Source: a virus. Taken from it: a stretch of DNA of 64,000 nt. Positions within the stretch are counted from its first letter, which is position 1. The number at the start of each line of letters is the position of its first letter. This document shows, piece by piece, positions 14,346 through 64,000 of the stretch. The notes under the pieces were generated by a model. It was not told where the DNA came from and did no database searches. It saw only the letters and a list, made by a program, of their open reading frames with translations. The position numbers were made by a program, and so were the translations under genes. The stretch is taken from positions 4,328 to 68,327 of IMG/VR virus record IMGVR_UViG_3300045482_000112. One strand, 5' to 3'.

Positions 14346-14348
14346 CCC

Positions 14349-14516: not shown

Positions 14517-14534
14517 TTCCTACCTCCAGAAAAG

Positions 14535-17303: not shown

Positions 17304-17320
17304 GCCCTCCTAGAAAGGAA

Positions 17321-17340
17321 GGAGGGGCTTCGGCCCCTCC
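17321..17340 (-). terminator. intrinsic terminator after tape measure
   Basis: GGAGGGGC-CGAA-GCCCCTCC then TTCCTTTCT on - strand. Confidence 0.7.
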
Positions 17341-17345
17341 GTTGG

Positions 17346-36835: not shown

Positions 36836-37453
36836 TTACACAAAGGTAAACGTCTCATCCAGGTAACGAGCGTACACCGCCTGTCTTAAAATATCCCCCA
36901 CATCCTGCCCCACCCCGGTCAGGTACCCATACAGCGGATAGGGGTAGACCACCTCTTCATCCGCCCAAAACAACCTCACCGCCAGGGTGTACACCTCCAC
37001 CACCTCATACTTCACACTCTCCTCCGGCACTCCCCTCTTCCAGAAGACCTGCTTGTCCCGGTACCGGTTCTGCTGTAGATGGCTCCAGGGCTGGATGGGC
37101 CGGGTAGGACAGTCAATAAGAACCCCGTAGTCCACCGGCACCCCCTGGACCTCCAGCTCATGCCTCATCGCGGAGACATGCTGCAGTCCCAGTATTGGCA
37201 GTACCCGCCGCTGTACCAGGTCGAACAACGACACATTGCAGAACGTCACCAGCGAGGCCGCCTCCTTTTCCGCCAGGTAACCCCTCTGCCGGTAACTCCT
37301 GAGAATAGTAGCCCTGGCTCCCTCCGCCTCTTCTCCTGACCCATCCACAAACTGCATGGTAGGGAGTACCCGCAAACTTACTCCCTCCTCCACCTGAAAA
37401 GAATGCACCACCTGCAGGTGTTCCAGCCGGTAGGTAGTCTGCCAATTCTGCAT
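36836..37453 (-). CDS. hypothetical protein, leaderless
   Basis: TAGAAT 7 nt upstream of ATG; first gene of leftward block. Confidence 0.7.
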   Translation of the reverse strand: MQNWQTTYRLEHLQVVHSFQVEEGVSLRVLPTMQFVDGSGEEAEGARATILRSYRQRGYLAEKEAASLVTFCNVSLFDLVQRRVLPILGLQHVSAMRHELEVQGVPVDYGVLIDCPTRPIQPWSHLQQNRYRDKQVFWKRGVPEESVKYEVVEVYTLAVRLFWADEEVVYPYPLYGYLTGVGQDVGDILRQAVYARYLDETFTFV

Positions 37454-37860
37454 ACCTTCAATTCTACTTCACCCTCTCATAGAAGTCGAACTTGTTATTT
37501 CTAAAGAAATTCCCCCCGTTTTTGAAGGTTGGGTTGGGAAATGGGACTTTAGTGCTGCGTGACGGCATAACGCCTACACTCCATAAACACGATAAAAAAG
37601 GCCCTCCCCGCACCTTGCTGCGCTACAGGCTTTGGTGTTGGTTTTTGCTGCTGCAAGACATACTTATATCAGGAAAGGAGATGACTCCGACCCCAAACCC
37701 AAGGCTAGGGCCGAACCCCTAGCCGCTGACAAAAAATCAAAGTGTGGGACTCTACAGAATCCTGCATAAATCCAGCAAGACAATGCTGGTTGGCGGTCTG
37801 CGGGAGCAGTAGCCAGGGCCACCCTACGCGCCCATAGAAGCGTAGGGAAAAGGAAAGAGT

Positions 37861-38187
37861 ATGAAAAACCCTGCAACAAGAGCAGAAGAGCTCGAAGTGC
37901 TGAACAGCTTCGGCTACCGGGTGATTCTGCCCGTAGCCGTCCAGGAGGGCGAATACGCCCTCCTGGAGTTCAAGTCCATGCCGCCCTTGATGGGCGACAT
38001 GGACGTAGTCACGACGGAGGCGCGGTACATACTTGCCTGGAAATACATCCAGGTGGGTTTTGTCCGGGTGATTACCCGGACAAAAGACGAGCGTACGCTC
38101 GGAGTCCACGTCAGGGTATCTCTCGATACCCCAAAGGAGTTCTCGGTAGTGGGGGAGCGGCTCGCCCGCTCCCTGCACAAAAGTTAA
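37861..38187 (+). CDS. hypothetical protein
   Basis: AAGGAAAGAG RBS; 108 aa. Confidence 0.7.
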   Translation: MKNPATRAEELEVLNSFGYRVILPVAVQEGEYALLEFKSMPPLMGDMDVVTTEARYILAWKYIQVGFVRVITRTKDERTLGVHVRVSLDTPKEFSVVGERLARSLHKS

Positions 38188-38229
38188 CCCCCCCCCCCCC
38201 TGCCCGGAGGGTATCCGGGCAAGGAAACC

Positions 38230-38349
38230 ATGCCCAAAAAGAAGTACTACTGGGTCGTGTCCGCGCGGTTTACCGCGCGGTACGACACATATAACCAGGC
38301 CTTAGCAGCATGGGCCAGCCTCAGGCTGGCCCATATAGAGTACCGATAG
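38230..38349 (+). CDS. 39-aa hypothetical protein
   Basis: AAGGA RBS; MPKKKYYWVVSARF...; followed by terminator. Confidence 0.55.
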   Translation: MPKKKYYWVVSARFTARYDTYNQALAAWASLRLAHIEYR

Positions 38350-38353
38350 TTAT

Positions 38354-38381
38354 GCCCCCAGCCGTAAGGCTGGGGGCTTTT
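38354..38381 (+). terminator. intrinsic terminator
   Basis: GCCCCCAGCC-GTAA-GGCTGGGGGC-TTTT. Confidence 0.85.
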
Positions 38382-38399
38382 CCTTTGGGCCAGGGCAGG

Positions 38400-39000
38400 A
38401 GACCCACTCCCACCGCCCACCCCCCAGTTCAGCGAGGCTTACGCCTCGCCTCACTTCCACCCACCGACAGCAAAGCCCCCCGGCATGGCCGAGGCTCTCT
38501 ACGCTCGCCAGGAAAGACAAAGGCAACACTACGTGTCCCACCGCCCACCCCCCACTCCCACCCCTAGAGAACCTCACTCACCCGCCAACGACCCTCGGGC
38601 CAACAACACCCCAAGGACCCACCGCCCGCTCGGCTACGCCGCAGCCTCAAGGGCAGCGCGACTAGAGTCCCACCTCCCGCTCGGTCCCAAAGGGGCCTCA
38701 AGGGCAGCGCGACTAGAGTCCCGCCGCCCACCCCCGGCCCTGGCCTCGCACGCTCGGCCAGGCTTGCCCACCCTTACGACCCCCCACACCACAACCTGGC
38801 CGCCCAAAGAAAAGCTAGGCTGCGGCCACAGGCCGCACTCGACTGTCCTCACCCCCACCCCCACGCCTCGCACCCTACGCTGAGGGACAAAGACCAGTGG
38901 AAAGTTCTACCCGACCAAGGCCCCACCGCCCGTTCAGTTACTACGTAGCCTCAAGGGGGGCAGAACACGTAGTGTCCCACCGCCCACCCCCGCCTCCCAC
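38400..39000. repeat. C-rich non-coding repeat tract
   Basis: CCCACCGCCC(ACCCC) repeated about six times; exact 28-bp repeat at 38644 and 38695. Confidence 0.75.
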
Positions 39001-39110
39001 ACTACCCAGGAAAGAAAGGTAACAAGAGAGTATGGACAGGGTTGCCTGGGTGGGGAAAGAGGGGTAAAAAGGCAAAAAGGGAGAAAAAGTAGAGGACATA
39101 CAACTCATGA

Positions 39111-39310
39111 CTGGGTCGTAGCCCCAGGGCTTTGATGCGCGACTAGCACGGTCCGTCTGCCGTGTCAAGGCCCCCTCCCCGCTACCTGGGGGCCTCCTCC
39201 CCGCTAGCGCGGGTCCCCTCCCCCAGCGGGTCCCCTCCTTGACACGGTTCGCTTCGCCAGCCGTCCCGTGCTGGGCAGTCGCCAAAGCCCTGGGTCTACT
39301 ACTGACCCAG
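39111..39310. promoter_or_regulatory. 200-nt fold-back hairpin upstream of RNAP gene
   Basis: Nested inverted repeats CTGGGTC/GACCCAG, CCCAGGGCTTTG/CAAAGCCCTGGG, GCGACT/AGTCGC, AGCACGG/CCGTGCT, CCGTGTCAAGG/CCTTGACACGG. Confidence 0.75.
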
Positions 39311-39323
39311 GCAAGGAGTTGTT

Positions 39324-41477
39324 ATGCTAAGCATAGAGAAATTCAAGGAAACAATTAAGGAAAAGAAGGAGCACCTCACAGAAGCCCGTAAAGTATACAC
39401 GGGCTCGTTTTCAGAGAGAGGATGGGAGAGGGACTCGTTCGCTCTCCTTTTCAATAATGACGTAAAAATCGAGGACGTAGTGGTAGGGAAGGAGCCTGCC
39501 ACTGTTTTAGACAACATGGAATTCGTGGGGGGCAACTCCCACCGGGTGGTGTACATGGACCTGAAAGGGTTCATGGCCAAATACCCCATCCTTGGAAAAT
39601 GGTGGGGGGAGAAAGGAGACTCCCACCTCCTGGCCAGTATGTTTTTAAGGCCAGGAAAGTTATTCCAGGGGGAAGGGTATATTTCCCTGCCCCCAAAAAA
39701 CAATAAGGAGGTCAATGATGGCCTCCTGATGACCCTGAGCCGTAAAGAATGGGGTCGTTTGGTAGAGGGGTTTGAACTGCCCCTCGAGACCGCCCTAGTT
39801 CAGGGGACGGTGTTTAGTCCCCAGGACGGAATTGTTGGAAAGGGCACCATCCGGGTGGTACTGCCCGGTGAGAAGCCCCAAACTTTTGTGGGGAGCTGGA
39901 AGTCCCTGCCCGAGGAGGTAGGGTCGCTGCTATTTTCCAGTATTTCGGTGCTGGAAACGGACGCCACCTATCGACCCAGGGCGTCTATCAATTTACAGGA
40001 GTACACCTACTGGGCCAGGGCAAGGGGGTACTCCTTGTCTCCATGGGTCTTGGAAGAGGCCCTGGCCGGGGTCAATAAAATTATGGTGGGGGAAAAGTCC
40101 TCCATCTACAACGGGTGGGGGTACCTCTCCCGTCTAGGGATACCCGCCCCCGACTCCATGCTGAAGGAGATGGAGGAGGGCCTGAAGGGAGGGCTATACA
40201 AGGCCCTCACTCGCTGGGAGCTGTCCCGTGCGGCAGGGTGGAGGGGTAAGGTCTCCGGGTCCGAGAAGTTGGCGGACCGGGAGATTCTGATGCCCAAAAG
40301 CTCAGATACCGTGATAGGGGACACGGTATACGCCACCAGAAACCCCGCCCTACCCATCAATGGGTGGGTGAGATACACGGTAGTGGGCCACGTAGGAGGC
40401 AATGTGGCCTATGTAAGTGGGGCGAGCGATAGCAAGTTCGCCCAAGTTTTAGGGGGAGACTTCGACGGGGATGACCTGGTGGTGCTGTACAGGAACCCCG
40501 TGCAGGGCGAATACGAGCCCGTGGTCAACCTCCAGCAGTGGAAGGCCGAGGGAAGGAAGTACGGCACCTCGGCAGAGGACCGGTTGGCCCGCTGGAACAA
40601 GGAGCGGGAAACCAATATCGGGCAGTGGGACATCCTAGCCCGATACTGTGCCGACTTCAATATGCTGAGCGAGGAGCTGGTCCTGCAGTTCTCCAAACTC
40701 ATACAGTTCAGCATCTCTCTGAAGAAGAGAGTGGGAGAACTGGAAGTGCCCAGAGTGGTATACACGGCCATGAAGATGGTGGGTCCCATGAAGGAGCTAT
40801 CGCCCACCTACTTCCTCCGCACCTTCAGGGATAGCACCAAGGAGTCCCGCGAGGCCGGAATGGTCACCCACGCAGAGGCCCTGGCCGAGCTGATGCCCAT
40901 TGTCGAGGCAGTCTCTGATGGGCTCGAGGCAGTCTCGGTGGGGAAAACCCGCTGGGACTTTTCGAGGGCCAGAGAAGTGGCCTTGAAAGTGAGGGACAAC
41001 GACGCCCTCAAGGTGGTCGCAAAAGAGTACCTTGAGAAGTTTGTGGCCCTCAGCACCGCCAAATTCCAGGCTGCAGAGGCCGAGGATGGGGATGTACGGA
41101 GCATCCTCAATCGGGAGCTCAGGTACCTACTGCAAGTAGAAATGCCCGAGTTCATGCTGGGCCTGGAGGAGGAACAGGCCCTGGAGTTCTCCGCCGAATT
41201 GGTCAAGGTGTTCCCCAACAGCATCTTCTGGGTGTTCGCGGTACACCCGGAATTCCTCAGAAGGGTGGCCATGGCTACCTTCGCTGGAGAGAAGGCCATG
41301 TTGGTGGGGGAGCATAGCTTGCAGGAGGGGGATACAGTTATCATCCCCCCCTACACCCGAGAAGTTGAGGTTGGAGGGCAGATGATGAAGCTCTCCAACG
41401 GAGTAATGCTCTGGGAGGAGGTGAAAACCGCCACCGTGGTGAAGGTGTATGCCAAGTCGGTGGTCCTGAAATTCTAA
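39324..41477 (+). CDS. single-subunit double-psi beta-barrel RNA polymerase (YonO/QDE-1/P23-45 gp64-like)
   Basis: LGGDFDGDDL catalytic loop, upstream YATRNPAL and IVGKG; 717 aa; AAGGAG RBS. Confidence 0.8.
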   Translation: MLSIEKFKETIKEKKEHLTEARKVYTGSFSERGWERDSFALLFNNDVKIEDVVVGKEPATVLDNMEFVGGNSHRVVYMDLKGFMAKYPILGKWWGEKGDSHLLASMFLRPGKLFQGEGYISLPPKNNKEVNDGLLMTLSRKEWGRLVEGFELPLETALVQGTVFSPQDGIVGKGTIRVVLPGEKPQTFVGSWKSLPEEVGSLLFSSISVLETDATYRPRASINLQEYTYWARARGYSLSPWVLEEALAGVNKIMVGEKSSIYNGWGYLSRLGIPAPDSMLKEMEEGLKGGLYKALTRWELSRAAGWRGKVSGSEKLADREILMPKSSDTVIGDTVYATRNPALPINGWVRYTVVGHVGGNVAYVSGASDSKFAQVLGGDFDGDDLVVLYRNPVQGEYEPVVNLQQWKAEGRKYGTSAEDRLARWNKERETNIGQWDILARYCADFNMLSEELVLQFSKLIQFSISLKKRVGELEVPRVVYTAMKMVGPMKELSPTYFLRTFRDSTKESREAGMVTHAEALAELMPIVEAVSDGLEAVSVGKTRWDFSRAREVALKVRDNDALKVVAKEYLEKFVALSTAKFQAAEAEDGDVRSILNRELRYLLQVEMPEFMLGLEEEQALEFSAELVKVFPNSIFWVFAVHPEFLRRVAMATFAGEKAMLVGEHSLQEGDTVIIPPYTREVEVGGQMMKLSNGVMLWEEVKTATVVKVYAKSVVLKF

Positions 41478-41578
41478 GAACCCCGGAGTAGAGGCACCTC
41501 CACAGGCTTTGCCGCGTGGGGGATGCCCACCTATTATAAAAAGACCGTCACCTCGCTCGGTTACTTCGGCACCTAAGA

Positions 41579-41604
41579 GGGCCGCTTCGCGGCCCGAATC
41601 GGTG
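41579..41604 (+). repeat. hairpin module A copy 1
   Basis: GGGCCGC-TTC-GCGGCCC-GAATCGGTG. Confidence 0.85.
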
Positions 41605-41654
41605 AGGACAAAAGAGGGAAAAGAAACAGCCCTCTGGCGTCCGAAGGAGGAGTT

Positions 41655-41972
41655 ATGGAATTAAAGAACTTAACCCCCCATGCCCTGGTGGTTGCAGGGC
41701 GAACCATCGAGCCCTCGGGGGTCGTGGCAAGAGTTAGTGTGTCGTTCGAGGATGCCGGGTCCGTGGATGGCATCCCCGTGGTGTCTCAGGTATTCGGGCA
41801 GGTGGAGGGCCTGCCCGAGCCCCAGGAGGGCGTGGCCTTCATCGTCAGCGGTATGGTTCTAGCGACGATAAAGGGCCGGGCGGACGTGTTCGCCCCGGAC
41901 ACCGGCCCCACCGCCATCAGGAACGAGAAGGGCCACATCATCGGGGTGGTCCGTCTCGTGGCAGCGGGGTAG
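41655..41972 (+). CDS. conserved viral hypothetical protein (NLTPH type)
   Basis: NLTPH, PSG..ARV, GLPEP..G...IVS, RADVFAPD; strong RBS. Confidence 0.8.
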   Translation: MELKNLTPHALVVAGRTIEPSGVVARVSVSFEDAGSVDGIPVVSQVFGQVEGLPEPQEGVAFIVSGMVLATIKGRADVFAPDTGPTAIRNEKGHIIGVVRLVAAG

Positions 41973-41977
41973 TTACC

Positions 41978-42235
41978 ATGGTCCCCACCCTGGCCTCCCT
42001 GGGGCGGGCGGTGTTTGTCTGCCGCACGGCCCAGGGATGGGATGTTAGCCCTCATCAGCGGGTATCCCGTAGCAGGCTGCAGGCATTTACTGCCAGCGGC
42101 CAGCTCCGGCTGCTGGATACCCCCACAATAGCCTTCGTCCAGTCGGGGGAGAAGTGGGTGCCCGCAGGCATCTACGACTCCCCCGATGGCCCCATCGCGC
42201 TGGAGCTGCGGCAGGTAGCCGTGGCTTCGGCGTAG
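41978..42235 (+). CDS. hypothetical protein
   Basis: In-operon 85-aa ORF. Confidence 0.6.
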   Translation: MVPTLASLGRAVFVCRTAQGWDVSPHQRVSRSRLQAFTASGQLRLLDTPTIAFVQSGEKWVPAGIYDSPDGPIALELRQVAVASA

Positions 42236-42253
42236 GTAGTAGTAGGAGGACCC

Positions 42254-42403
42254 ATGTATACCAATATAGAAATAGAAGAGCAAGGGGACGGCTGGGTAGT
42301 TTCCCAGGCGTCCAACGGCATTATAATCGGGGTCTACTCCACCTGGGAACAAGCCTGGGCAGTTGCCACCGCAATCGATGCCGAGCTCGGCGTCCCCCAG
42401 TAG
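42254..42403 (+). CDS. 49-aa hypothetical protein (DUF2188-like)
   Basis: AGGAGG RBS; GDGWVV...YSTWEQAWAVA. Confidence 0.65.
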   Translation: MYTNIEIEEQGDGWVVSQASNGIIIGVYSTWEQAWAVATAIDAELGVPQ

Positions 42404-42410
42404 CCCCCAG

Positions 42411-42442
42411 CCCCAGGGTCCAAAAGACTCTGGGGTATTTTT
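42411..42442 (+). terminator. intrinsic terminator
   Basis: CCCCAGGGTC-CAAAA-GACTCTGGGG then TATTTTT. Confidence 0.7.
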
Positions 42443-42629
42443 CTGTACCCCGGCTTGACCGGTGGTACTCCTGGCAAAAGCCACAGGGCCGCATTCGCGG
42501 GGGCTATAACCCCGGCCCTGGCGATGAAGCTGAGCTTTATCGCCCTCGAGGTTCCACAAGAACCGAGAGTGATGGCTTTCTAAACAACAAACCAAGGTTT
42601 TGGTTGTGGGGTACAACTAAAACCTCGAC

Positions 42630-42746
42630 ATGCCTCTGTGAGGGCCTACAAGGGGCCTAGAAGCGCTTACCCCCCCGTCTCCAGTCTTACCCCTACAACC
42701 GGGGGTGGAGGAGCTTCTAGGTACCCTACAGAGGCTTATAGGGGGT
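42630..42746 (+). repeat. ~117-bp long-hairpin repeat copy 1
   Basis: ATGCCTCTGTGAGG...CTAGAAG...CTCCAGT..CTTACCCCTA...CTTCTAGG...CTACAGAG..TTATAGGGGGT shared with 44076. Confidence 0.8.
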
Positions 42747-42808
42747 GTTTACCCTCGAGGTGTCGGCTCGTCCCCAGAGTTCCCTCGAGGGTACCCCGAC
42801 ACTCTGCA

Positions 42809-42834
42809 GGGCCGCTTCGCGGCCCGAACCGGTG
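42809..42834 (+). repeat. hairpin module A copy 2
   Basis: GGGCCGC-TTC-GCGGCCC-GAACCGGTG directly before RBS. Confidence 0.85.
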
Positions 42835-42848
42835 ATAAGGAGGACAGA

Positions 42849-43355
42849 ATGTTATACGTGGTTTTCAACACCGACAAGCCCACTCCCTTCGTAAATATCG
42901 GGGGGGTCCAGTTCGGCCCCCTGGGTACGGGAAAGTACCTGGGGAACGACTGGAGCTACCTGGTTATCCCCGAGGTAGCAGGGCGCTTGCTTTCCGTGCA
43001 GGTGCCTTCCAGGGCCACTGCCAGGGATGCCAGCTTCCACGGCCAGTTCGGGGATGGCGTATATGCCGTCCTCCTGGCCCGGTACAACGGGAGACGGTCC
43101 CCAACCCTGTTCCTCACCGATGAGGCCGACCATGAGCCCATCGGAACCGGAGGGGCCAAGTGCGTCTGGCAGTACGGGGATGGCCACGGTATGAAGTTCG
43201 GGGCCCTCCTCCGGCTGGACCCCGTAGCTCAGGTAAAACTGAGCGTAACGGGGCACCACGACCACGGCTGGGCCCGTCACATCTTCAAATTTCAGGATGG
43301 GGTAGTCTCCCGCATCCCCAGGAATGGGGGCTGGAAGACTCCCCCAGTAATTTAG
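42849..43355 (+). CDS. hypothetical protein
   Basis: AAGGAGG RBS before ATG 42849. Confidence 0.75.
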   Translation: MLYVVFNTDKPTPFVNIGGVQFGPLGTGKYLGNDWSYLVIPEVAGRLLSVQVPSRATARDASFHGQFGDGVYAVLLARYNGRRSPTLFLTDEADHEPIGTGGAKCVWQYGDGHGMKFGALLRLDPVAQVKLSVTGHHDHGWARHIFKFQDGVVSRIPRNGGWKTPPVI

Positions 43356-43363
43356 GGAGAGTT

Positions 43364-43672
43364 ATGCGAATAGACATAAAGGCCACCCTGGCCGCCCTGA
43401 TGGGGATGCCGGGGGAGTTAGTCACTAGGACAAACCCCGCCAGTAGCGCGGTGGGGCCGTCCACCGAGTTTGCCGTCCGGGACCAGGACGGGGAGGACAG
43501 CCTGGAACTCCTCCTCGACTACCTGGTCATCTCCGTATCCTGGGGGTCCATGAGTTTCTGGGACCGCTGGGAGGGGGAGCCCGGAGAACCCCTGCGGTAC
43601 ACGGGAACCGTAGGGGACGCCCACAGAAGACTACCCGCATGGGTGGTCTTCGAGGAAGGGGGTGCGGGTTGA
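43364..43672 (+). CDS. hypothetical protein
   Basis: GGGAG RBS, ATG 43364. Confidence 0.7.
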   Translation: MRIDIKATLAALMGMPGELVTRTNPASSAVGPSTEFAVRDQDGEDSLELLLDYLVISVSWGSMSFWDRWEGEPGEPLRYTGTVGDAHRRLPAWVVFEEGGAG

Positions 43673-43861
43673 TGCCCTCATAGGGTGGTTTGTCGGGTGG
43701 TACTCGAGGCGAGAGTCCTCAGGATGGCTCCCGCTAGGGGGGCTATACCCCGGCCACACCGTGGGGGGATGACCTGCCTCAAAACTTTCCTAGGCAGGTA
43801 CCGCCAGGTAGACGCCATGGGGGTGCTGAAGAGGAGCGAAGCGACTGTTCCCCACCTGAGA

Positions 43862-43887
43862 GGGCCGCGAAGCGGTCCGAACCGGTG
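43862..43887 (+). repeat. hairpin module A copy 3 (GAA loop)
   Basis: GGGCCGC-GAA-GCGGTCC-GAACCGGTG. Confidence 0.8.
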
Positions 43888-44075
43888 ATGAGAAAGAGCA
43901 GAAGGAGCGCGGAGAAGCGCTCCGGGTAGGGACAGCAAAGGTAAACCCAATCCTGCACCTGAGAAAGGAGGTCACCCCATCTATAAAGTGTGCTCCCAGC
44001 CGCAATTCCTATCCAATGAAGGGGGTAGAATCCCCCCAAATCAGGAAATGCGTCCAGGGCATACTAAAATGCCAT

Positions 44076-44193
44076 ATGCCTCTGTGAGGCTCTGTAGGGG
44101 GTCTAGAAGGCTGACCCCCCCCCTCTCCAGTACTTACCCCTAGACCAGGGGGTCGAGGCGCTTCTAGGGGGTCTACAGAGCCTTATAGGGGGT
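44076..44193 (+). repeat. ~118-bp long-hairpin repeat copy 2
   Basis: GGCTCTGTAG/CTACAGAGCC and CTAGAAG/CTTCTAG stems. Confidence 0.8.
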
Positions 44194-44230
44194 AATGACG
44201 GGGGGCGTAGCGACCCGTCGTTGCCCTTGA

Positions 44231-44254
44231 GGTTCCGAAGGAACCGAACGGGTG
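44231..44254 (+). repeat. hairpin module A copy 4 (compensatory stem)
   Basis: GGTTCC-GAA-GGAACC-GAACGGGTG. Confidence 0.7.
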
Positions 44255-44723
44255 TTTAGGGGTAGCATGTCGGGAAGGTTGGCCGAATGCCCCCCACCCC
44301 AGAGAAGAGGGGGTGACCTCCGGGTTAAAAACTTTCCTGGGCATGTACCGCCGTATAGACGCCATGGGGACCCTACAGACGCCGAGCTAAGGCCCCATCC
44401 AGAGCCCGGAGGCCCCCCCGCCGCAGGGCTCGGGATGCCGGGGGGACTAAAAACTTTACGGAGCGTGTACCGCCCGGCAGGCCACAGGGGGTAACTCCCC
44501 TCAGCCGTGTTGCAGAAAGGAGGCATGGTATACTGGGCAGTACCAGCCCATTTAGTCTGACTCCATAGCCCCCCTCCCATGACAAGTCGCTTCGCTCCTT
44601 GTCTGGGCGGGAGGGGGGTTGGGGGGTGGGAAATGTAACGACTCACCCTAGAGATTCCTTGGGCCGAGTGAGGAATATGCGGTGCAGGACGTAGGGGAGG
44701 CATGTACCGGTGCCACGCAACAT

Positions 44724-44752
44724 CGACCCCTAACGACCCCTAACGACCCCTA
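44724..44752. repeat. 3x10-bp tandem repeat
   Basis: CGACCCCTAA-CGACCCCTAA-CGACCCCTA. Confidence 0.85.
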
Positions 44753-45191
44753 TCCACCCTTTCTCCCCCTTCCCGACCCTCCCCCCTTATCCCCCTCACC
44801 CGTCACTAACCTCGTCCAGGACGAGGTTTCTCTCCTACGGAGGAGATGTCCACAGGACTATACTCAGTACAATTCCAGTTAGGTAAACGGCTACACCACA
44901 GTCTTTTTACTTAACTGAGCATGTACCGCCAGTCCTGCTACCGACATTTCCTCCCTCACCATTCCTACCCTGTGTCTGGGACACACTTCCCCCTCGTCTT
45001 GAAGGGAGCTTCTGCTATTCTCCTTTCTCTTCTAGTACAAAGGACTGGGAGGGAAAAGGTGTATCCAGAGAGAGAAAGGGTTAACTCCATGTCCTTCACC
45101 CTAATACATGTCTTTTACTAGTAGGCATGTACGGGGTCATTGTCTTTTACCCTTAACTCCACGTCCTCTACCAGTAAAGAACAAGGAGAAA

Positions 45192-45278
45192 GGTAAGGAA
45201 CGTAGAGAGATAGTAGAAAGGACTGGGAGATAAAGGGTAAGGGACGTAGAGAGACAGTAGAAAGGACTGGGAGATAAA
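45192..45278. repeat. 2x44-bp purine-rich tandem repeat
   Basis: GGTAAGGRACGTAGAGAGAYAGTAGAAAGGACTGGGAGATAAA twice; AAAGGACTGGGAG also at 45039. Confidence 0.85.
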
Positions 45279-45402
45279 CAATAGAGAACAGAGAGGAGAT
45301 TAGGATTTTTGCTACCCTAGCCCAAGTACCCCCCTGTGTACAATGAGAGAAGCCCCGCGATGTGCCCGCATCCGGGGCTTTGCCATTCCTTGAAAGGAGT
45401 GT

Positions 45403-45963
45403 ATGAAGCTCGGGAACACCCCAAACAAAACCGTGGTTGTGTACCGCCTGTACCCCACAAAGGAGCAAGAAAGTACCCTGCTGCTCACACTAGACCTAAC
45501 GTGGAAGCTATACAACATCGCCCTGACGGAACGGAAGGAAGCCTGGAAACGACACAAGAAGAACCTATCCGCATACGACCAGATGTATGCCTTACCCTAC
45601 CTCAAGAAGACAAGACCCGAGTTCCAAAAGGTCTACGCTCAGGTGCTCCAGCAAACCCTTATCCAGGTGGAACAAACGTTCAACAGATTCTTCGCAAAAG
45701 TCCGCCTGAAAGAGAAGGCAACCTATCCCCAGGTTGTAGAAAGAGGGGAGTGGACTAGCTTCACCTTTCCGCAAGTCGTGGTGGGTACAAAATGGCAAGG
45801 TCCAGGTAAGTTACGAGAAAACGGTACCGTCAAAATTCCCAAGATAGGAGACGTTCGGATAGACGTGCACCGTCCCCTTGAAGGGACACCTAAAGCCCTC
45901 ACCATCAGTTACCAGAACGAGCAATGGTACGCACTGTACTCCTGTGACGTACCACCAACCTGA
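45403..45963 (+). CDS. TnpB N-terminal (WED/REC) protein lacking RuvC
   Basis: YRLYPTKEQ, LYNIAL.ER, VYAQVLQQ, FNRFF, SFTFPQ, KIPKIG, HRPLEG..K..TI..WY; ends before RuvC-I. Confidence 0.85.
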   Translation: MKLGNTPNKTVVVYRLYPTKEQESTLLLTLDLTWKLYNIALTERKEAWKRHKKNLSAYDQMYALPYLKKTRPEFQKVYAQVLQQTLIQVEQTFNRFFAKVRLKEKATYPQVVERGEWTSFTFPQVVVGTKWQGPGKLRENGTVKIPKIGDVRIDVHRPLEGTPKALTISYQNEQWYALYSCDVPPT

Positions 45964-45982
45964 GCCCACAATAACCACAGCA

Positions 45983-46022
45983 ACCCACCCAGAAAGACAC
46001 TCCATGTCCGACTGGGTGGGTT
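45983..46022 (+). terminator. hairpin after truncated tnpB
   Basis: ACCCACCCAG...CTGGGTGGGT then TCTCTT. Confidence 0.5.
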
Positions 46023-46029
46023 CTCTTGT

Positions 46030-46114
46030 GCCGCTTCGCGGCTAGACCGGTGATGAAGGGAAGCGTAGCGACCCGTCATTACCTATGAGGGCCGCTTCGC
46101 GGCCCGAACCGGTG
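46030..46114 (+). repeat. hairpin module A copies 5 and 6 joined by hairpin B
   Basis: GCCGC-TTC-GCGGC-TAGACC-GGTGATGAAGGG..GCGTAGCGA..CCCGTCATTACC-TATGA-GGGCCGC-TTC-GCGGCCC-GAACCGGTG. Confidence 0.85.
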
Positions 46115-46145
46115 GGGAGTAAACAACCCACCCAAGGAGGCAGTC

Positions 46146-46370
46146 ATGTTTGAAGTCTACGGCACCATTACCTACTACACCAACACGTTCGACAACCATA
46201 CCCGTCAAAAGTACATCATCCAGAAGTTTTCCTCCAGGACGAATGCCGAACGGTACCGCCGTCTCATGGACGATACCAACCCGGACACTGACCTGGCCAT
46301 CCGCTCCGTACCCAACTTCCCCCGCCGCCCGGTAGTAAGACGCATCCGGGTAGCATCCGCCGCCCACTAG
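46146..46370 (+). CDS. hypothetical protein
   Basis: AAGGAGG RBS. Confidence 0.7.
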   Translation: MFEVYGTITYYTNTFDNHTRQKYIIQKFSSRTNAERYRRLMDDTNPDTDLAIRSVPNFPRRPVVRRIRVASAAH

Positions 46371-46440
46371 CCACGGAAGCAAGTACACACTTCCACCACC
46401 CCACAGCCCAGGCGCAGGGTTATGCGTCGTAGGAGTTTCT

Positions 46441-46830
46441 ATGTTGACCATTCAAGGTGTTGTTACCCCAGGAAAAGCAGAGTTCTTCAAAGGTCTGCAA
46501 TTCACCCCCAAGGGCCAGCCCTTCACCGAGCTGCGCATCAACCTCGGGGATAGCGACCGTCCGCGCTGGCATGGGGTCACGGTGTACGGTGCCGAGGCCC
46601 AGCTTACCGCCCTGCTAGACTCCCTCAAGAAGCCTGAGGGGGGACACACCAGCCTGCTGGTACGTGCCCCCGCCCAGCCCCGCACCTTCACCGCCTCCAT
46701 CCGCAATGCCGAAGGGGAGGTAACGGGGCAGAAGGAACTCCTCTCCTTCTCTACCAACTTCAACTCCCTCCAGGTATGGAGAAACGACATCCGCAGTTGG
46801 GTGGACTACGCCAACCAGCCCCTGTTCTAA
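46441..46830 (+). CDS. SSB-like OB-fold protein
   Basis: FTPKGQPFTELRI...WHGVTVYG..A resembles SSB. Confidence 0.6.
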   Translation: MLTIQGVVTPGKAEFFKGLQFTPKGQPFTELRINLGDSDRPRWHGVTVYGAEAQLTALLDSLKKPEGGHTSLLVRAPAQPRTFTASIRNAEGEVTGQKELLSFSTNFNSLQVWRNDIRSWVDYANQPLF

Positions 46831-54257: not shown

Positions 54258-54578
54258 ATGCAGAACTTCAACGCCCTGCTCTGGAGCTCCCACATCCCGG
54301 AAAGCTGGTTCCAGTACTGCATAGGCTCGAACTGTAAGGGCCTGGGATTCCAGCTCAATAACGCTCGAATCTGGGTCACCTACAGCCAAACCAGGGACTA
54401 CAATGTCCGCATGGAATACCGCCACAGAATAACCAGAGCCTGGAGAACCTTCTTCAGAACCCACTGTTTCAAGGATGAGCTGCCCAAAATCTATCAGAGT
54501 GCCCTGTACCTGCTGAAGCACCACTACCAGGACCTGGCCCACCAGGAGACTCCCCATGACCCCGGAACAGAAACTTAA
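54258..54578 (+). CDS. hypothetical protein
   Basis: In-operon ORF. Confidence 0.6.
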   Translation: MQNFNALLWSSHIPESWFQYCIGSNCKGLGFQLNNARIWVTYSQTRDYNVRMEYRHRITRAWRTFFRTHCFKDELPKIYQSALYLLKHHYQDLAHQETPHDPGTET

Positions 54579-55668
54579 GTTTGCCCGTACCATTCTCCCC
54601 ACAGTGGAGCCTTTCTATGGCTCCCTGGTGTTCAATGCCCGCACCGAGTTTGTGGACGAACCCGGTACCGCCTGGACCGATGGGAAAACCATCAAATTCA
54701 GCCGGGAGTTCGCGGAAGAACTCACCCGCGAAGAATTTACCGGAGTCCTGTTACACGAGGTACTGCACGTTGCGTACCTGCACATCCCCCGGCTAAGGAG
54801 TGGGGGCCTCAACCCCCTAAAGTGGAATTACGCCACCGACTACGTGATAAACCTGCAGATACAGAAGCTGACAGACGGCTACTCCAACTCCCGTCGCAAG
54901 GACATTATCCTACCCAAAGGTTGTCTCTATGACGCCAAGTTCGAGGGCATGTCCGCCGAACAGGTCTATGCCCTACTGTCCGATAGCCCGAGCAACCCCT
55001 CCGACACCCTTAACGGAGACCTTCAAAAGGAGCAGGTCTCAGGCGAGGAACTTCAACAGGCCGCCGAGGAGTGGAGAGGGCTCGTAGCCCAGGCTGCCAA
55101 TCAGGCCCGAATGCGAGGTACCTTACCTGCCGGGGCGGACCGGGAACTGCATGACCTCCTCTACCCCAAGATAGACTGGAGGGAACGCCTCAAACAATTC
55201 CTGCAAACCTTCCCCATTGACTACGACTACATGCACCGGGACCGCAGGTTCCTCCACAGCCGGGTTATCATCCCCTCCCTGACCGGCGAGAGACTCACCG
55301 GGGTTCTGGCCATCGACACCTCGGGCTCCATCGACGAAGACCAGGTACGCCAGTTCATGAGTGAGGTTTACTCAGTGGTGGAGAGCTTCGCCCGTGTAGA
55401 CCTATGGGTTTTATGCTGCGACACCGAAGTGCTGAACCCCCAGCAGATAACCACCCGCAAAGAGTTGGAGGGATACCAGCTTACAGGGAGGGGCGGTACC
55501 CGCTTTGAGCCGGTATTCCAGTGGGTGGAGACAGAGCAGCCCGGCACCTCCTTCGTGGTCTACTTCACGGACGGACACGGCTCCTTTGGGGATGCGCCGG
55601 ATGTACCCACCCTGTGGGTCATGACCACCGACACCATTCCACCTTTCGGTAACCACTGTCGTCTGTAG
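54556..55668 (+). CDS. metallopeptidase-vWA protein (DUF2201-like)
   Basis: TAWTDG, HEVLH, WNYATDYVIN, MIDAS DTSGS, GRGGT.F, YFTDG. Confidence 0.9.
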   Translation: MTPEQKLKFARTILPTVEPFYGSLVFNARTEFVDEPGTAWTDGKTIKFSREFAEELTREEFTGVLLHEVLHVAYLHIPRLRSGGLNPLKWNYATDYVINLQIQKLTDGYSNSRRKDIILPKGCLYDAKFEGMSAEQVYALLSDSPSNPSDTLNGDLQKEQVSGEELQQAAEEWRGLVAQAANQARMRGTLPAGADRELHDLLYPKIDWRERLKQFLQTFPIDYDYMHRDRRFLHSRVIIPSLTGERLTGVLAIDTSGSIDEDQVRQFMSEVYSVVESFARVDLWVLCCDTEVLNPQQITTRKELEGYQLTGRGGTRFEPVFQWVETEQPGTSFVVYFTDGHGSFGDAPDVPTLWVMTTDTIPPFGNHCRL

Positions 55669-58816: not shown

Positions 58817-59092
58817 ATGGAAATGATTCTCGCAATAGCCACCTTCTTCGCCGGTTTTATGGCCTTCCAGTACGGAGTACAGGTCAAGTACCTGGAAAAC
58901 CAGCTACGCCAGCGCCCTACCGGTACCTACACCCCCGCCCAAATGTGGGTGGGCATCGACTACAAGAAACAACTCACCCTCTCGCTGGACCGTAAACTCG
59001 CGGCCCAGGCTGCAGGGGCTATGGGTACCGTGCGTACTCTGGAACAGTACCTGCAAGAACTTACCCAGGAAACCCCTGTTGAACACAATTGA
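58817..59092 (+). CDS. membrane-anchored hypothetical protein
   Basis: N-terminal TM; GAGG RBS. Confidence 0.65.
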   Translation: MEMILAIATFFAGFMAFQYGVQVKYLENQLRQRPTGTYTPAQMWVGIDYKKQLTLSLDRKLAAQAAGAMGTVRTLEQYLQELTQETPVEHN

Positions 59093-59921
59093 AGACGTAA
59101 TGCTGGCAGTCAATGCCCACCTGGTAGAAGCCGAACAAACCCAGGGCAGTTCCCTACGCCTATCCTCAGCCGGTACCTGCGCCCGCAAACTGGCCTGGGC
59201 CAATCACCTGTGGGAGGAGATGCCCCCCATCTCCTCGAGGGCCGCCTCCATCTTTGCCCTGGGCCACCTCCTGCACGACGCAGAAAGGAACCTCATCCGC
59301 GAAGTAGCCCCCCTGGTGCGGGAAGAGGAAAGAGTCTACCTGAAAATACCGGACCTGACCCAGGACCTGCACCAGCTACACCCCATCATCCACCCCCAGA
59401 CCGTAAGAAACGGGAACGGATACACCCTGATGGTACCCGGTCATGTGGACGGAGTGCTGGAATTGGACGACGGCCCCGTACTGGTGGACATCAAAACCAC
59501 CAGCACCCGCTCCTTCGGGGAGATGGTCAAGGACGGTCCTAGCTACGAGTACCGGGCCCAGTTGAATGCCTATATGGAAGCTACCGGCATCCACCAGGCG
59601 TGGCTCTGGCTATACAACAAGGAGACCTCCCATCGGGCGGCGGTGCCGGTACCCTACGACCCCCGCATTGTGGAGGAGGTCAAGGCCCGTTTCCGCAGGG
59701 CCGCCCTGGCTACCCCGGACAGCCCCCCTCCCAGGGAGTACGCCCCCAAGCAAGAAATGAGGAAAAAGGAACCCACCGGACGGGAGTACCTGCCCTGGCA
59801 GTGTTCCTATTGCAGCTTCACCAGCCGCTGCTGGTCCTCAGAGGGTTTCGAGATGGTGCTGGAAAACAACAAGCCTCGCTGGCTCCGCAATACCCCATCT
59901 GACGAACTCGAGCTAGTGTAA
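59079..59921 (+). CDS. Cas4-like PD-(D/E)xK exonuclease
   Basis: N-terminal C, G..LH, GHVDG, DIKT, QLNAY, C-terminal CSYC....C. Confidence 0.85.
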   Translation: MNTIEDVMLAVNAHLVEAEQTQGSSLRLSSAGTCARKLAWANHLWEEMPPISSRAASIFALGHLLHDAERNLIREVAPLVREEERVYLKIPDLTQDLHQLHPIIHPQTVRNGNGYTLMVPGHVDGVLELDDGPVLVDIKTTSTRSFGEMVKDGPSYEYRAQLNAYMEATGIHQAWLWLYNKETSHRAAVPVPYDPRIVEEVKARFRRAALATPDSPPPREYAPKQEMRKKEPTGREYLPWQCSYCSFTSRCWSSEGFEMVLENNKPRWLRNTPSDELELV

Positions 59922-63025: not shown

Positions 63026-64000
63026 CTATTCCCGCTGCCCCTTGGCCAACCTCACCGGAGAGGCCGCCTGCAGTACCTCCGTCAGGTCTTCCAGGTTCAG
63101 GCGCGAGTATCGGTCCGTCATGTGAGTGGTGGTATGCCCCAGGACAGCCTGAGTGACGGTACGGGCCACTCCCTGCCTGTCCAGGGCGGTTACGAACCCC
63201 CTGCGAAAAGCGTGGGGGGTCATATGCTCCACCTCTGCAACCCTGCACAGCCGGGTGATGAGCTGCAACAGAGAACTCCGTCCCATAGGCTGTACCTCCA
63301 CCCCGGTACCCGCCAGAAAAACCCGCTCGCTGTCGCTGGGGGGACGTTCATGCCGTATGTATTGATACACTTTACTCTTCACCTCCCTTCCTACCGGCAC
63401 GTAGCGGTCCTTCCCGCCCTTGGAGGCCCGGATATGCACCACGTTGGGCTGTTCCAGGTCTTTAATGGTAAGGCCACAGAGGTCGGAAGCCCTCATACCG
63501 GTTGCGTACAGTAGGGTCAGGATAGCCTGGTCCCGCAAGGGCTGGCGGGTCTGTCCTGCGGCCCTCAGTAAGCGGTTAAAGTCGGTAGCCCGTACCACCG
63601 GGAGGGTCTTCTCCGGTACCCTGGGGAAAAATTCCCGGCAGAACTGCTGGGTAGCGAAGAGGTTCTCAGGAACTATCCTCTGGCGGTAACACCAGATGGC
63701 GAAAGTCCTGACTGGGCGGAGCCGTACATGCACCCCTCCGGCGGTCAGTGCCTCCACTACGTACCCATTCTCCGCCTTCATGATGTTGGGCACATTGCCT
63801 TTGGGTTGTTCCGCAGTCCAGGCTGCAAACTTGAGCAGGTTGCGCTCCGTAAGGCAGTCTGTCGTGGTCTGCCGCAATACTTCCCGCATGTACCACTCCA
63901 GCTTCTGCAATGCAAAGGTGTACACACGCTGGGTATTGGGCGAGAGATTCTTGCGCTTGGCTTGTAAGAACTCTGCAATGACCGAGGCCAACTTCTCCAT
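63026..64000 (-). CDS. tyrosine recombinase/integrase (start at window edge)
   Basis: LRDQAIL.LLYATGMRASD, KGGKDR, TPHAFRR, LGH, TDRY; N-terminal core-binding domain. Confidence 0.92.
   Translation of the reverse strand: MEKLASVIAEFLQAKRKNLSPNTQRVYTFALQKLEWYMREVLRQTTTDCLTERNLLKFAAWTAEQPKGNVPNIMKAENGYVVEALTAGGVHVRLRPVRTFAIWCYRQRIVPENLFATQQFCREFFPRVPEKTLPVVRATDFNRLLRAAGQTRQPLRDQAILTLLYATGMRASDLCGLTIKDLEQPNVVHIRASKGGKDRYVPVGREVKSKVYQYIRHERPPSDSERVFLAGTGVEVQPMGRSSLLQLITRLCRVAEVEHMTPHAFRRGFVTALDRQGVARTVTQAVLGHTTTHMTDRYSRLNLEDLTEVLQAASPVRLAKGQRE

Follow-up and report, generated by a model that had tools for sequence, protein, structure and literature searches.

A putative non-virion two-barrel RNA polymerase of the phiFa clade in a groundwater provirus record and the non-coding elements around its gene

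Introduction

The locus described here raises the question of whether a 717-aa open reading frame in a 64,000-nt stretch of viral DNA (the window, taken from IMG/VR record IMGVR_UViG_3300045482_000112) encodes an RNA polymerase (RNAP) that transcribes its own phage, and which sequences would then control it. The family concerned has already been described from Thermus phages, with gp64 of P23-45 and gp44 of phiFa, and the enzyme itself is an added member. Chaban et al. 2024 (PMC10770324) report that gp64, alone and as a monomer, elongates RNA primers with DNA as the template, that it is absent from P23-45 virions, and that ChIP-seq places it on 49 kb of the phage genome; they also state that phiFa encodes a homolog of this non-virion RNAP (nvRNAP) but no virion RNAP (vRNAP). 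How the transcription programme starts in phages with an nvRNAP only, and what the nvRNAP recognizes, are left open there (PMC10770324). For the enzymes of the phiFa clade, gp44 included, no reports of activity, transcripts or promoters were found in the literature searched.

Results

The reading frame is preceded by an AAGGAG Shine-Dalgarno sequence 5-10 nt before its ATG (Table 1). Its motif residues are G172-K173-G174, T338-R339-N340-P341, and G377-G378-D379-F380-D381-G382-D383, the last of these followed by D384. Invariant positions are K173, G174, R339, N340, P341, G377, G378, D379, D381, G382, D383, and D384 in an alignment of seven sequences, and K173, G174, K193, R339, P341, G378, D379, D381, G382, and D383 in one of 20 sequences. 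The three aspartates D379, D381, and D383 are kept in 20/20 aligned relatives and are matched to the gp64 motif in an HMM alignment. The 717-aa frame and the GGDFDGD, TRNP, and GKG motifs on which the original prediction was built are thus real, and at the level of sequence their conservation across the family confirms that they are not chance strings. The family is small: a search of 5.8 billion proteins gave six relatives, and one of 1.84 billion gave 21 cluster representatives. Of this rare enzyme class the gp64 branch alone has been studied. A six-frame scan of the whole window for open frames of at least 100 aa gave a single RNAP-like match, the 717-aa frame itself. The same scan also showed one in-frame DDDGD at about position 32723, which stands without the remainder of the RNAP motif.

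Searched singly, the protein gave no match in Pfam, in PHROGs or by phmmer on the PDB, and no Pfam family, the RdRP family model included, was reached at E ≤10. At a cutoff of E 10, a profile made from 20 family members matched just four sequences in the PDB, namely gp64 (8f72, E 2.2e-6), gp62 of phage P74-26 (8f5m, E 2.9e-5), and the gp96 vRNAP twice (8h2n, E 0.12; 8h2m, E 1.6); chains of QDE-1 or RDR were absent from these matches. It should be noted that a direct blastp comparison with gp64 was not significant (E 1.4, 24% over 153 residues). Since neither this comparison nor the single-protein phmmer search of the PDB reaches significance, the link to gp64 rests on a profile match of about 150 residues together with the predicted fold.

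The AlphaFold model of the protein (pLDDT 88.0, pTM 0.81) predicts that a single chain contains two double-psi beta-barrels and that its connector and C-terminal region form a clamp. When the model was compared by VIA with 48,161 chains, the best structural match was P74-26 gp62 (8f5m_A, Z 22.4, 508 of 592 residues aligned, model residues 36-654), and high scores were also obtained with plant RDR2 (Z 21.4, 571 residues aligned) and QDE-1 (Z 18.5). The virion polymerases gp96 (Z 12.7, 332 residues) and crAss phi14:2 gp66 (Z 11.3, 491 residues) and the beta-prime-type subunits (Z 7-9, model residues 287-526) scored lower. As gp62 and RDR2 tie, a template preference cannot be read from the structure. 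Foldseek against the PDB at E up to 0.001 returned 28 chains, all of which were QDE-1, gp62/gp64, RDR2, gp96 or 6vr4, with QDE-1 as the top match (E 4.1e-13). The structure prediction and Foldseek search that had been proposed as a check therefore yielded a modelled double-psi fold with matches to QDE-1 and gp62/gp64. In BFVD the top match was a 701-aa protein aligned over its full length (E 9.5e-56, TM 0.84/0.86), which from its length and 33% identity we take to be phiFa gp44; next came a 616-aa protein of P23-45 (E 1.9e-12).

Within the model, the first barrel is taken as beta-subunit-like; its boundaries are a reading of the model's secondary structure, and the region lies inside the alignments with gp62, QDE-1, and RDR2 (model residues 27/36 to 654). 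For the second barrel, VIA comparison of model residues 303-391 with isolated double-psi barrels gave Z 6.8 (7dww) and Z 6.5 (7dbo), and the HMM alignment pairs this stretch with gp64 residues 276-426. The names bridge helix and trigger loop are applied to helices 417-466 from their position, the alignments with beta-prime-type subunits reaching residue 526. The C-terminal region folded by itself (residues 645-717) had a pLDDT of 75 and a best VIA Z of 4.9, and in the ESM Atlas the domain matched generic small barrels, with no usable feature match. The full-length BFVD match to the 701-aa protein suggests that this predicted beta-domain is common to phiFa-type enzymes.

Table 1. Positions of the polymerase gene, its predicted domains, and the surrounding features in the window.
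Feature	Position	Strand	Evidence or remark
Tape-measure-like protein, 2636 aa	17346..25256	-	Translation; matches phiFa tape measure gene
Host-type intrinsic terminator, early block	38354-38377	+	
Four CCGCCCAC(C) boxes (38413, 38541, 38724, 38980) with flanking repeats	38407..38991	+	
Long imperfect RNAP leader hairpin	39100..39322	+	MFE -126.6 kcal/mol, z -7.97, 0/200 shuffles
RNAP gene (P0001), 717 aa	39324..41477	+	ATG-start ORF, homologs, profile, model, fold, synteny
Predicted first beta-barrel, residues ~134-225, with invariant K173, G174, K193	39723..39998	+	Model strands E134-223
Predicted second beta-barrel, beta-prime-like, residues ~297-392, with R339-N340-P341	40212..40499	+	VIA, HMM alignment
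Predicted metal-binding D379-x-D381-G-D383, second barrel	40458-40472	+	
Predicted helices 417-466 past second barrel, with invariant G433, R440, K468	40572..40721	+	H417-429, H432-444, H450-466
Predicted C-terminal small beta-domain, residues 655-717	41286..41474	+	Outside every PDB alignment (model ranges end 654-658)
Element e1	41570..41605	+	58.3 bits, z -3.3; 93 nt past RNAP stop, 50 nt before ATG 41655
Host-type intrinsic terminator, early block	42410-42436	+	
Element e2	42800..42835	+	53.4 bits; 17 nt before ATG 42852
Element e3, loop GAA, one G-U pair	43853..43888	+	52.5 bits
Element e4, same architecture as e1	44222..44255	+	Weak model match, 13.7 bits, E 0.21
Element e5, degenerate, 5-bp stem	46021..46053	+	15.1 bits, E 0.078
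Element e6, heading long + strand gene block	46080..46115	+	55.8 bits; 32 nt before ATG 46148
Tyrosine recombinase, last gene of provirus record	63026..64000	-	Pfam PF00589 Phage_integrase, E 8.2e-31

The genomic setting was addressed by a tblastn search of 50,697 phage records (E up to 0.01), which found one record only, that of phiFa, at gene 44 (E 3e-78, 36% identity, 87% coverage); in blastp the protein matched phiFa gp44 at E 4e-99. The window is collinear with Thermus phage phiFa over 34 ORF pairs of 25-61% identity, with the RNAP gene at the syntenic place, and the same gene order is found in two further lineages, L002 and L003. A scan of metagenomes gained only L008, a near-identical phiFa strain, and L009, a second copy of L002. 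The position of the RNAP gene is syntenic with the phiFa long terminal repeat (LTR), and the window record is a provirus cut, the IMG/VR class of the record being provirus. The tyrosine recombinase noted in the original prediction was recovered by Pfam, and it is placed like phiFa gp14, a ‘XerD-like integrase’ (blastp to phiFa ORF 23803-24660). A motif scan found no DxDGD in the 2636-aa tape-measure protein, which, as in phiFa, thus carries no fused virion RNAP, and the AT-rich promoter word of the P23-45-type vRNAP had no match at up to two mismatches. The window thus lacks both the DFDGD-bearing RNAP domain at the N-terminus of the tape measure and the AT-rich promoter word, which in the vRNAP phages (P23-45, P74-26, G20c, and TSP4) precedes the pre-early genes. 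It gave no Rfam match at gathering thresholds and no tRNA with ARAGORN. In phiFa escapers, gene 44 is reported to have tolerated in-frame deletions only, so that it is presumably essential (PMC7515739).

Two suggestions about the enzyme fared less well. It had been thought probably thermostable, which appears doubtful given a groundwater sample and a proteome IVYWREL index corresponding to ~45 °C for the window phage vs ~67 °C for the phiFa control; the sequence occurs in full in only one metagenome and in part in two, all of them groundwater or aquatic, and no RNA data set is listed as containing it. The adjacent small ORFs had been put forward as possible cofactors. In the early block, the RNAP is the only gene common to the window, phiFa, L002, and L003, and since the small ORFs are not conserved they are poor candidates for this role; gp64, moreover, is reported to work alone as a monomer (PMC10770324).

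Upstream of the RNAP gene, the CCGCCCAC boxes lie within a non-coding stretch of ~970 nt. Clusters of four copies within 600 nt were seen in none of 300 shuffles each of the window genome, phiFa, and L003, and in all three the cluster is on the + strand, upstream of the RNAP gene and within 1 kb of it; in phiFa the boxes are at 1543-2007. The array is followed by the leader hairpin, which base pairs with GGAGUUGU of the Shine-Dalgarno sequence and spacer according to the pair table. Equivalent leaders have z -7.47 in L003 and z -5.81 in phiFa, and z -2.4 in L002, where the leader is truncated by the contig end. Alignment of the four leaders by MAFFT/RNAalifold was poor (-13.5 kcal/mol), and we therefore relied on the single-sequence folds. 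A scan for sigma-70-type promoters over 9.3 kb (37300-46600) showed no enrichment, with 3 sites vs 2.6 expected; on the + strand, the region leading up to the RNAP gene contained none. Two host-type intrinsic terminators on the + strand point to host RNAP reading the early block.

Downstream of the gene, a series of repeated elements was found (e1 to e6). The architecture, as seen in e1, comprises an outer 4-bp helix, an internal loop, an inner 7-bp GC helix, a 3-nt loop, and a GAAYCGGTGA tail; in e4 both helices are compensatorily changed (GGTTCC/GGAACC and GCCC/GGGT). A covariance model of the window element (R1) found no copy in the window outside 41.5-46.1 kb, and in L002-L007 even its best match (15.4 bits, E 0.18) was not convincing. 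Elements with a GC-rich 5-7-bp stem, a 3-nt loop, and a conserved tail of ~10 nt are present in 4/4 phiFa-like lineages, on the strand of the RNAP gene and from its stop codon onward; in phiFa the hairpins have a TCC loop and lie at 5111, 5163, 7681, 18176, and 31084. Perfect GC-rich triloop hairpins in general are not in overall excess (9 vs 9.3 expected in the window, 12 vs 6.25 in phiFa), and it is the specific families alone which stand out from this background. A search for a word shared before the middle genes yielded C-rich low-complexity words only. The new result is thus that three non-coding features are common to phiFa-like genomes, namely the CCGCCCAC array, the leader hairpin, and the hairpin-plus-tail element.

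Discussion

The reading frame, the conservation of its motifs, the profile link, the predicted fold, and the synteny together lead us to regard the 717-aa protein, with a probability of roughly 0.87, as a non-virion single-polypeptide two-barrel DNA-dependent RNAP of the phiFa gp44 clade and a remote relative of gp64. The original prediction of a single-chain double-psi-barrel RNAP akin to gp64, QDE-1, and the crAss enzymes agrees with the profile and the predicted fold; the enzyme is not of an unrecognized kind, phiFa gp44 having been annotated and published.

Activity, template, timing, and promoters are inferred, and we picture them as follows. The active site would be formed by the two double-psi beta-barrels of one chain. 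In the second barrel, D379, D381, and D383 would hold the catalytic Mg2+; in the first, two invariant lysines, K173 and K193, would lie where the barrel of the beta subunit touches the substrate. Helices 417-466 would take the place of bridge helix and trigger loop, and the remaining chain would form a clamp, to give a crab-claw enzyme that is monomeric and sigma-free. Judging from gene order, the RNAP gene would lie in a block equal to the long terminal repeat of phiFa, which holds the early genes of that phage. In a phage without a virion polymerase the first RNAP mRNA would most likely be made by the host RNAP; the phage enzyme may then transcribe the early and middle genes on the + strand, with the late genes on the - strand read, as in P23-45, by the RNAP of the host.

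An enzyme of this kind might instead be packaged in the virion and injected, and so carry out pre-early transcription without the host RNAP. We consider this unlikely, even though no sigma-70-type promoter stands out 5' of the RNAP gene and the chain has an extra C-terminal beta-domain which is missing from the solved gp62 and gp64 chains. The two terminators in the early block are of host type, the virions of P23-45 are reported to be without gp64 (PMC10770324), and an 80 kDa crab-claw is not obviously able to pass a siphovirus tail; tail passage is the explanation which Chaban et al. offer for the flatness of gp96 (PMC10770324).

Another view would make the enzyme mainly RNA- or ssDNA-templated, of the QDE-1/RDR kind, serving for example dsRNA synthesis or the priming of replication and not phage transcription. 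The fold matches RDR2 and QDE-1 as well as it does gp62/gp64, and QDE-1 is active on both DNA and RNA templates (PMC9508822); this view is nonetheless very unlikely, in that the sequence profile reaches phage enzymes only, the gene occupies the position of phiFa gene 44, among early genes that are otherwise those of a DNA phage, and the closest characterized relative, gp64, is DNA-templated and found on phage DNA in ChIP-seq (PMC10770324). That the protein is a decayed or non-catalytic relative retained for some other role is scarcely credible, since the three aspartates and other core residues are invariant in 20/20 relatives, the frame is intact across 717 codons, and the reading frame of gene 44 is kept in the phiFa escapers (PMC7515739); beyond the absence of any assay nothing specific speaks for it.

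For the DNA-dependent phage RNAP that we favor, the three non-coding features are candidates for the control and the promoter logic, which the original prediction rightly called unknown. One tentative proposal, possible rather than probable, is that phiFa-type polymerases read structured promoters, the lineage-specific hairpin-plus-tail elements being recognition or start sites that co-evolve with the enzyme. This would put a two-barrel single-subunit RNAP on a hairpin-type promoter, a promoter geometry known from the unrelated virion RNAP of N4. The CCGCCCAC array and the leader hairpin occluding the Shine-Dalgarno sequence might then act as a switch by which the polymerase gene is kept silent and later fired, in a phage without a virion polymerase which is here probably temperate.

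The record places the phiFa branch outside hot springs and in a provirus as classed by IMG/VR, and the comparison of four lineages reveals that non-coding elements on either side of the polymerase gene are conserved. The six 36-nt elements, the four-box array, and the one leader hairpin offer concrete and cheap targets for the question of how nvRNAPs start and what they recognize. More speculatively, were activity to be shown, a compact sigma-free RNAP that may be moderately heat-tolerant and starts from a short, defined promoter would be of practical use as a tool enzyme.

Among known systems, phiFa gp44 (QKE11339.1, annotated ‘RNA polymerase’) is similar in length (701 vs 717 aa) and occupies the same place in a collinear genome, between ParB/gp51/gp50-type genes and replication genes. 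The same classes of non-coding element surround its gene, but the sequences of the repeated elements differ. The two enzymes belong to different subclades, the window RNAP grouping with P0002-P0005 and gp44 with P0006, P0007, P0009, and P0010 at 41-57% identity; their sources are groundwater and a hot spring, respectively, with a lower thermophily index for the window. P23-45 gp64 and P74-26 gp62 (8F72, 8F5M) share the single-chain two-barrel design, DxDGD, the crab-claw with clamp, and probably an early-region gene, and they are the only significant profile matches in the PDB, at ~14% identity in structural alignment. They differ in length, gp64 being shorter by 100 residues and having no counterpart of the N-terminal helix (1-35) or of the C-terminal beta-domain (655-717). 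P23-45 also carries a vRNAP fused to its tape measure protein and uses AT-rich promoters, neither of which is present in the window phage.

In QDE-1 and RDR2 the two-barrel core, the connector, and the C-terminal helical region superpose on the model, and the spacing of R-N-P and GGD-x-DGD presumably resembles the RdRP signature; these enzymes, however, have no sequence-level match to the window RNAP, have different N-terminal domains in chains of 900-1100 residues, and synthesize siRNA precursors. The barrels and the bridge-helix region are also common to gp96 and phi14:2 gp66. In these two, however, the RNAP is carried in the virion as part of a large fused polypeptide, and gp96 is described as without a clamp (PMC10770324). 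SPbeta YonO is likewise a single-chain, (pro)phage-encoded, distant relative of multisubunit RNAPs (PMC5467207). The comparisons made did not connect it with the window RNAP, as the original prediction had done: YonO was not among the named entries of the best 50 BFVD matches, several of which are unnamed, and tblastn of the phage collection matched phiFa only. The arrangement of the locus, a polymerase gene in the probable early block with conserved repeated elements directly downstream on the same strand, recalls T7, an analogy which is functional only, as T7 RNAP is a right-hand polymerase whose fold is unrelated to that of the two-barrel enzymes.

Identity and Predicted Fold of the Polymerase

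The 717-aa protein encoded in the early block is very probably an RNA polymerase (RNAP), as the original prediction had it, and is an added member of an already published family rather than a new kind of enzyme. A search of 5.8 billion clustered proteins identified six homologs, all without annotation, that align with the query at 33-54% identity. The GKG, TRNP and GGDFDGD motifs first read from the sequence (G172-K173-G174, T338-R339-N340-P341, and G377-G378-D379-F380-D381-G382-D383) are invariant among these six, and K173, G174, K193, R339, P341, G378, D379, D381, G382, and D383 are also invariant in a 20-sequence alignment enlarged by distant relatives; the motifs are conserved and no accident. 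A six-frame scan of the window found the aspartate signature in this ORF and in one unrelated DDDGD.

The single sequence gave zero matches in Pfam, PHROGs, and the PDB sequences. Exhaustive phmmer against 1.84 billion cluster representatives returned 21 relatives at E ≤1e-3, 18 at 1e-10, and eight at 1e-30. The family profile (20 proteins) matched four PDB sequences at E ≤10, all of them phage polymerases: P23-45 gp64 (8f72, E 2.2e-6), P74-26 gp62 (8f5m, E 2.9e-5), and the tape-measure-fused polymerase gp96 (8h2n, E 0.12; 8h2m, E 1.6). The profile alignment to gp64 covers the R-x-P ... DxDGD ... K-K/R stretch. An AlphaFold2 model built from the family alignment was confident (pLDDT 88.0, pTM 0.81) and was aligned structurally to 48,161 PDB representatives, where it matched gp62 (Z 22.4; 508 residues aligned, model 36-654), maize RDR2 (Z 21.4; 571 residues), QDE-1 (Z 18.5), gp96 (Z 12.7), crAss-like phi14:2 gp66 (Z 11.3), the largest subunits of cellular, poxvirus, and ASFV polymerases (Z 7-9; residues 287-526), and isolated double-psi barrels (Z 6.5-6.8; residues 303-391). 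Foldseek against the PDB found 28 chains at E ≤1e-3, each from these same families. Since structural alignments and Foldseek agree, the double-psi-barrel fold called for beforehand is present in the predicted structure. In the viral structure library the best match was a 701-aa protein superposed over its full length (E 9.5e-56, TM 0.84/0.86), followed by the 616-aa protein of P23-45 (E 1.9e-12). Because gp62 and RDR2 tie as matches, a DNA or an RNA template cannot be read from the fold alone.

Local BLAST divided the family into three groups. The phiFa-type clade (700-745 aa) comprises two subclades, one with gp44 of the Thermus phage phiFa and P0006, P0007, P0009, and P0010 (41-57% identity), the other with the RNAP of the window and P0002-P0005 (36-54% identity to it). 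The proteins of a second, apparently undescribed clade (P0012-P0021, P0025) measure 600-890 aa and share 27-29% identity with the first clade across residues 100-475; one member lies among phage-like genes on a contig, L006, binned to a groundwater Planctomycetota MAG, adjoining phage-type exonuclease and DNA-repair genes. The third group is gp64, whose similarity to the others is marginal (E 1e-6 to above 1; with the RNAP of the window, E 1.4).

Genome Context and Lifestyle

Among 50,697 phage records, tblastn with the RNAP matched one, phiFa, in gene 44, which is annotated "RNA polymerase" (36% identity, 87% of the query). A local all-ORF comparison with phiFa gave 34 collinear ORF pairs of 25-61% identity, the other 17 of its 51 rows being shadow frames over the same genes. 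The shared order runs from ribonucleotide reductase and DNA polymerase (+) through a late block (-) of tail genes, a 2636-aa tape measure, capsid, portal, and large terminase, a ParB-like gene with one more small gene, the early block including the RNAP (+), and ATPase, helicase, exonuclease, resolvase, and primase genes, to the tyrosine recombinase (-), whose presence in the same phage was also confirmed (PF00589, E 8.2e-31). Two IMG/VR contigs of phiFa-like phages, L002 and L003, have the same order; the small terminase of the late block has a match in L003 only.

According to IMG/VR the record is a provirus that was cut out of a longer contig, and a 77,793-nt contig is listed for the RNAP in the protein database. 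The first gene of the record is a homolog of phiFa gp13 and the last is the integrase; in phiFa these two genes adjoin with a tRNA-Lys between them, and such ends would be expected if the phage had integrated at an attP adjacent to int. In the likely source run, the Logan contigs stop no more than ~220 nt from either end of the record. For these reasons the phage may be temperate, in which case the polymerase gene would need tight control.

Two expectations did not hold up, namely that the enzyme is probably thermostable and that adjacent small ORFs may be cofactors. The DNA of the window was found in one full and two partial holders, all groundwater or aquatic metagenomes from three studies, one of them possibly the source. 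By the Zeldovich relation between IVYWREL fraction and temperature, the phage (0.406; 54 proteins ≥150 aa) would correspond to ~45 °C and the phiFa control (0.429) to ~67 °C; moderate thermophily is possible, and Thermus-like stability is not indicated. At the thresholds applied, no homolog in phiFa, L002, or L003 was found for any small ORF of the early block, the 105-aa ORF directly 3' of the RNAP gene included; these ORFs resemble early genes that evolve fast.

Non-coding Features Flanking the Gene

The non-coding features found here bear on control of the gene and possibly on the targets of its enzyme (see table). Upstream, after a 39-codon ORF and an intrinsic terminator, lie ~970 non-coding nt in which the + strand bears four CCGCCCAC(C) boxes. 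Clusters of four boxes, likewise + strand and at most 1 kb upstream of the polymerase gene, occur also in phiFa and L003, hence in all three lineages in which the region is available (L002 was left out because its contig ends 150 nt before its gene); shuffling gave such a cluster in 0/300 trials for each genome, and none was found in the P23-45 genome. Sequence here is hypervariable: a relative of 85-90% identity in metagenome run X3 covers the flanking genes and not 37835-38935. The upstream region is also strongly C-rich throughout on the + strand; in P23-45, a triplex-forming tract is annotated within the terminal repeat, 1.4 kb upstream of gp64. In the Logan contigs of the likely source run, a 57-nt side branch of similar depth (60 vs 67-73) diverges after 38399; it may represent either a variant strain or another context for the 30-mer at 38370-38399.

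The RNAP leader (220 nt before the start codon) folds as one long imperfect hairpin (-126.6 kcal/mol, z -8.0, 0/200 shuffles), its base predicted to be paired with GGAGUUGU of the Shine-Dalgarno and spacer. In L003 (z -7.5) and phiFa (z -5.8) the leaders are predicted to fold likewise, and the Shine-Dalgarno is occluded in two of the three minimum-energy folds.

A 36-nt element occurs six times on the + strand (e1-e6), from 93 nt 3' of the RNAP stop as far as 46.1 kb. In it an outer helix of 4 bp is separated by an internal loop from an inner GC helix of 6-7 bp, which is closed by a 3-nt loop, and the tail GAAYCGGTGA follows. A covariance model made from four of the copies gives these 52-58 bits, and the diverged copies are its two next-best + strand matches in the window; e4 carries a compensatory change in both helices. 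Copies e1, e2, and e6 lie 17-50 nt upstream of start codons. Every relative has its own version of the element, beginning at its polymerase gene or just beyond; in phiFa, short stop-to-start gaps are filled by the copies at 18176 and 31084, whose tails end in GGAGG.

Features of the window and of related genomes
Genome	Feature	Position	Strand	Remarks
Window	C run	38187-38200		~12 C, directly after stop of 108-aa ORF 37861-38187
Window	39-codon ORF	38231-38350
Window	Intrinsic terminator	38354-38377
Window	Break in Logan contigs	38370-38399		at terminator hairpin after 39-codon ORF
Window	RNAP gene	39324..41477	+	ATG start, AAGGAG upstream
Window	Sigma-70-like site	41509-41537	+	TTGCCG, 17 nt, TATTAT; 9/12 positions; between RNAP stop and e1; sole such + strand site of early block
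Window	e1	41570..41605	+
Window	105-aa ORF	41655-41972	+	two PHROG matches without assigned function (E 2.8e-20, 1e-19)
Window	115-nt block	42630-42746, 44076-44193		common to both
Window	e2	42800..42835	+
Window	Repeat-dense 1.7 kb	43673-45402		no convincing ORF; no Rfam match for repeats
Window	ACTTTCCTAGGCAGGTACCGCC-like words	43784, 44331, 44453, 44909
Window	e3	43853..43888	+
Window	e4	44222..44255	+
Window	Tandem 44-nt repeats	45189-45276
Window	186-aa ORF	45403-45963	+	sole domain HTH_OrfB_IS605 (Pfam E 6.8e-10); PHROG "transposase"
Window	e5	46021..46053	+
Window	e6	46080..46115	+
Window	HNH endonuclease-like gene	54556-55668	+	replication block; PHROG E 1e-90; common to phiFa
Window	Cas4/RecB-type exonuclease	59079-59921	+	replication block; E 3e-30; common to phiFa
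Window	Tyrosine recombinase	63026..64000	-
phiFa	Element	5111, 5163, 7681		AGGCGC-TCC-GCGCCT plus tail
phiFa	Element	31084		much the same tail
phiFa	Element	18176		somewhat different tail
phiFa	TCC-loop hairpin	16363		other stem, T-rich tail; inside gp24
L002	Elements	2570, 2617, 6544
L003	Elements	12114 to 18958		at least six copies
L006	822-aa distant homolog	9284-11752	+	29% identity over residues 101-473
P23-45 (L007)	AGGCGC-TCC-GCGCCT hairpin	32790		single, inside gp13; repeated in phiFa

That the phage polymerase uses the elements as promoters or start sites would fit their T7-like layout, their lineage-specific sequence, and their restriction to the gene strand; we nevertheless hold it to be unlikely, at about one chance in five. 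Alternatively, they may act as terminators that lack a U-run, or between cistrons in RNA processing or stability. No paper in the literature searched addresses phiFa-type polymerase promoters or these elements, and the figures and supplements of PMC10770324 may bear on both. The 186-aa ORF, which lies at the border of the early block and the middle genes with e5 and e6 directly after it, looks like the N-terminal fragment of a TnpB-type gene.

Comparison with Known Systems

The phiFa block bearing gene 44 is a 6.6-kb long terminal repeat. PMC7515739 describes it as carrying early genes 40-49 of the phage; the host is protected by type III spacers that target this repeat, and in escape mutants gene 44 tolerated no deletions other than in-frame ones. 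By position, the tandem 44-nt repeats of the window are like those just outside the end of this repeat (phiFa 6744-6975).

Chaban et al. (2024; PMC10770324) describe gp64 as a non-virion polymerase and a monomer that extends RNA on a DNA template and occupies early and middle genes; they propose that it starts at GC-rich promoters. Compared with the solved gp62 and gp64 chains, the RNAP of the window has an additional N-terminal helix (1-35) and an additional C-terminal beta-domain of ~60 residues (655-717), which when folded alone had no significant structural match (best Z 4.9). P23-45 has an AT-rich word before its pre-early genes, whereas the window phage lacks it. A motif scan found no DxDGD in the 2636-aa tape-measure protein; the window phage thus resembles phiFa and G18, which by the same source have a gp64 homolog and no tape-measure-fused virion polymerase.
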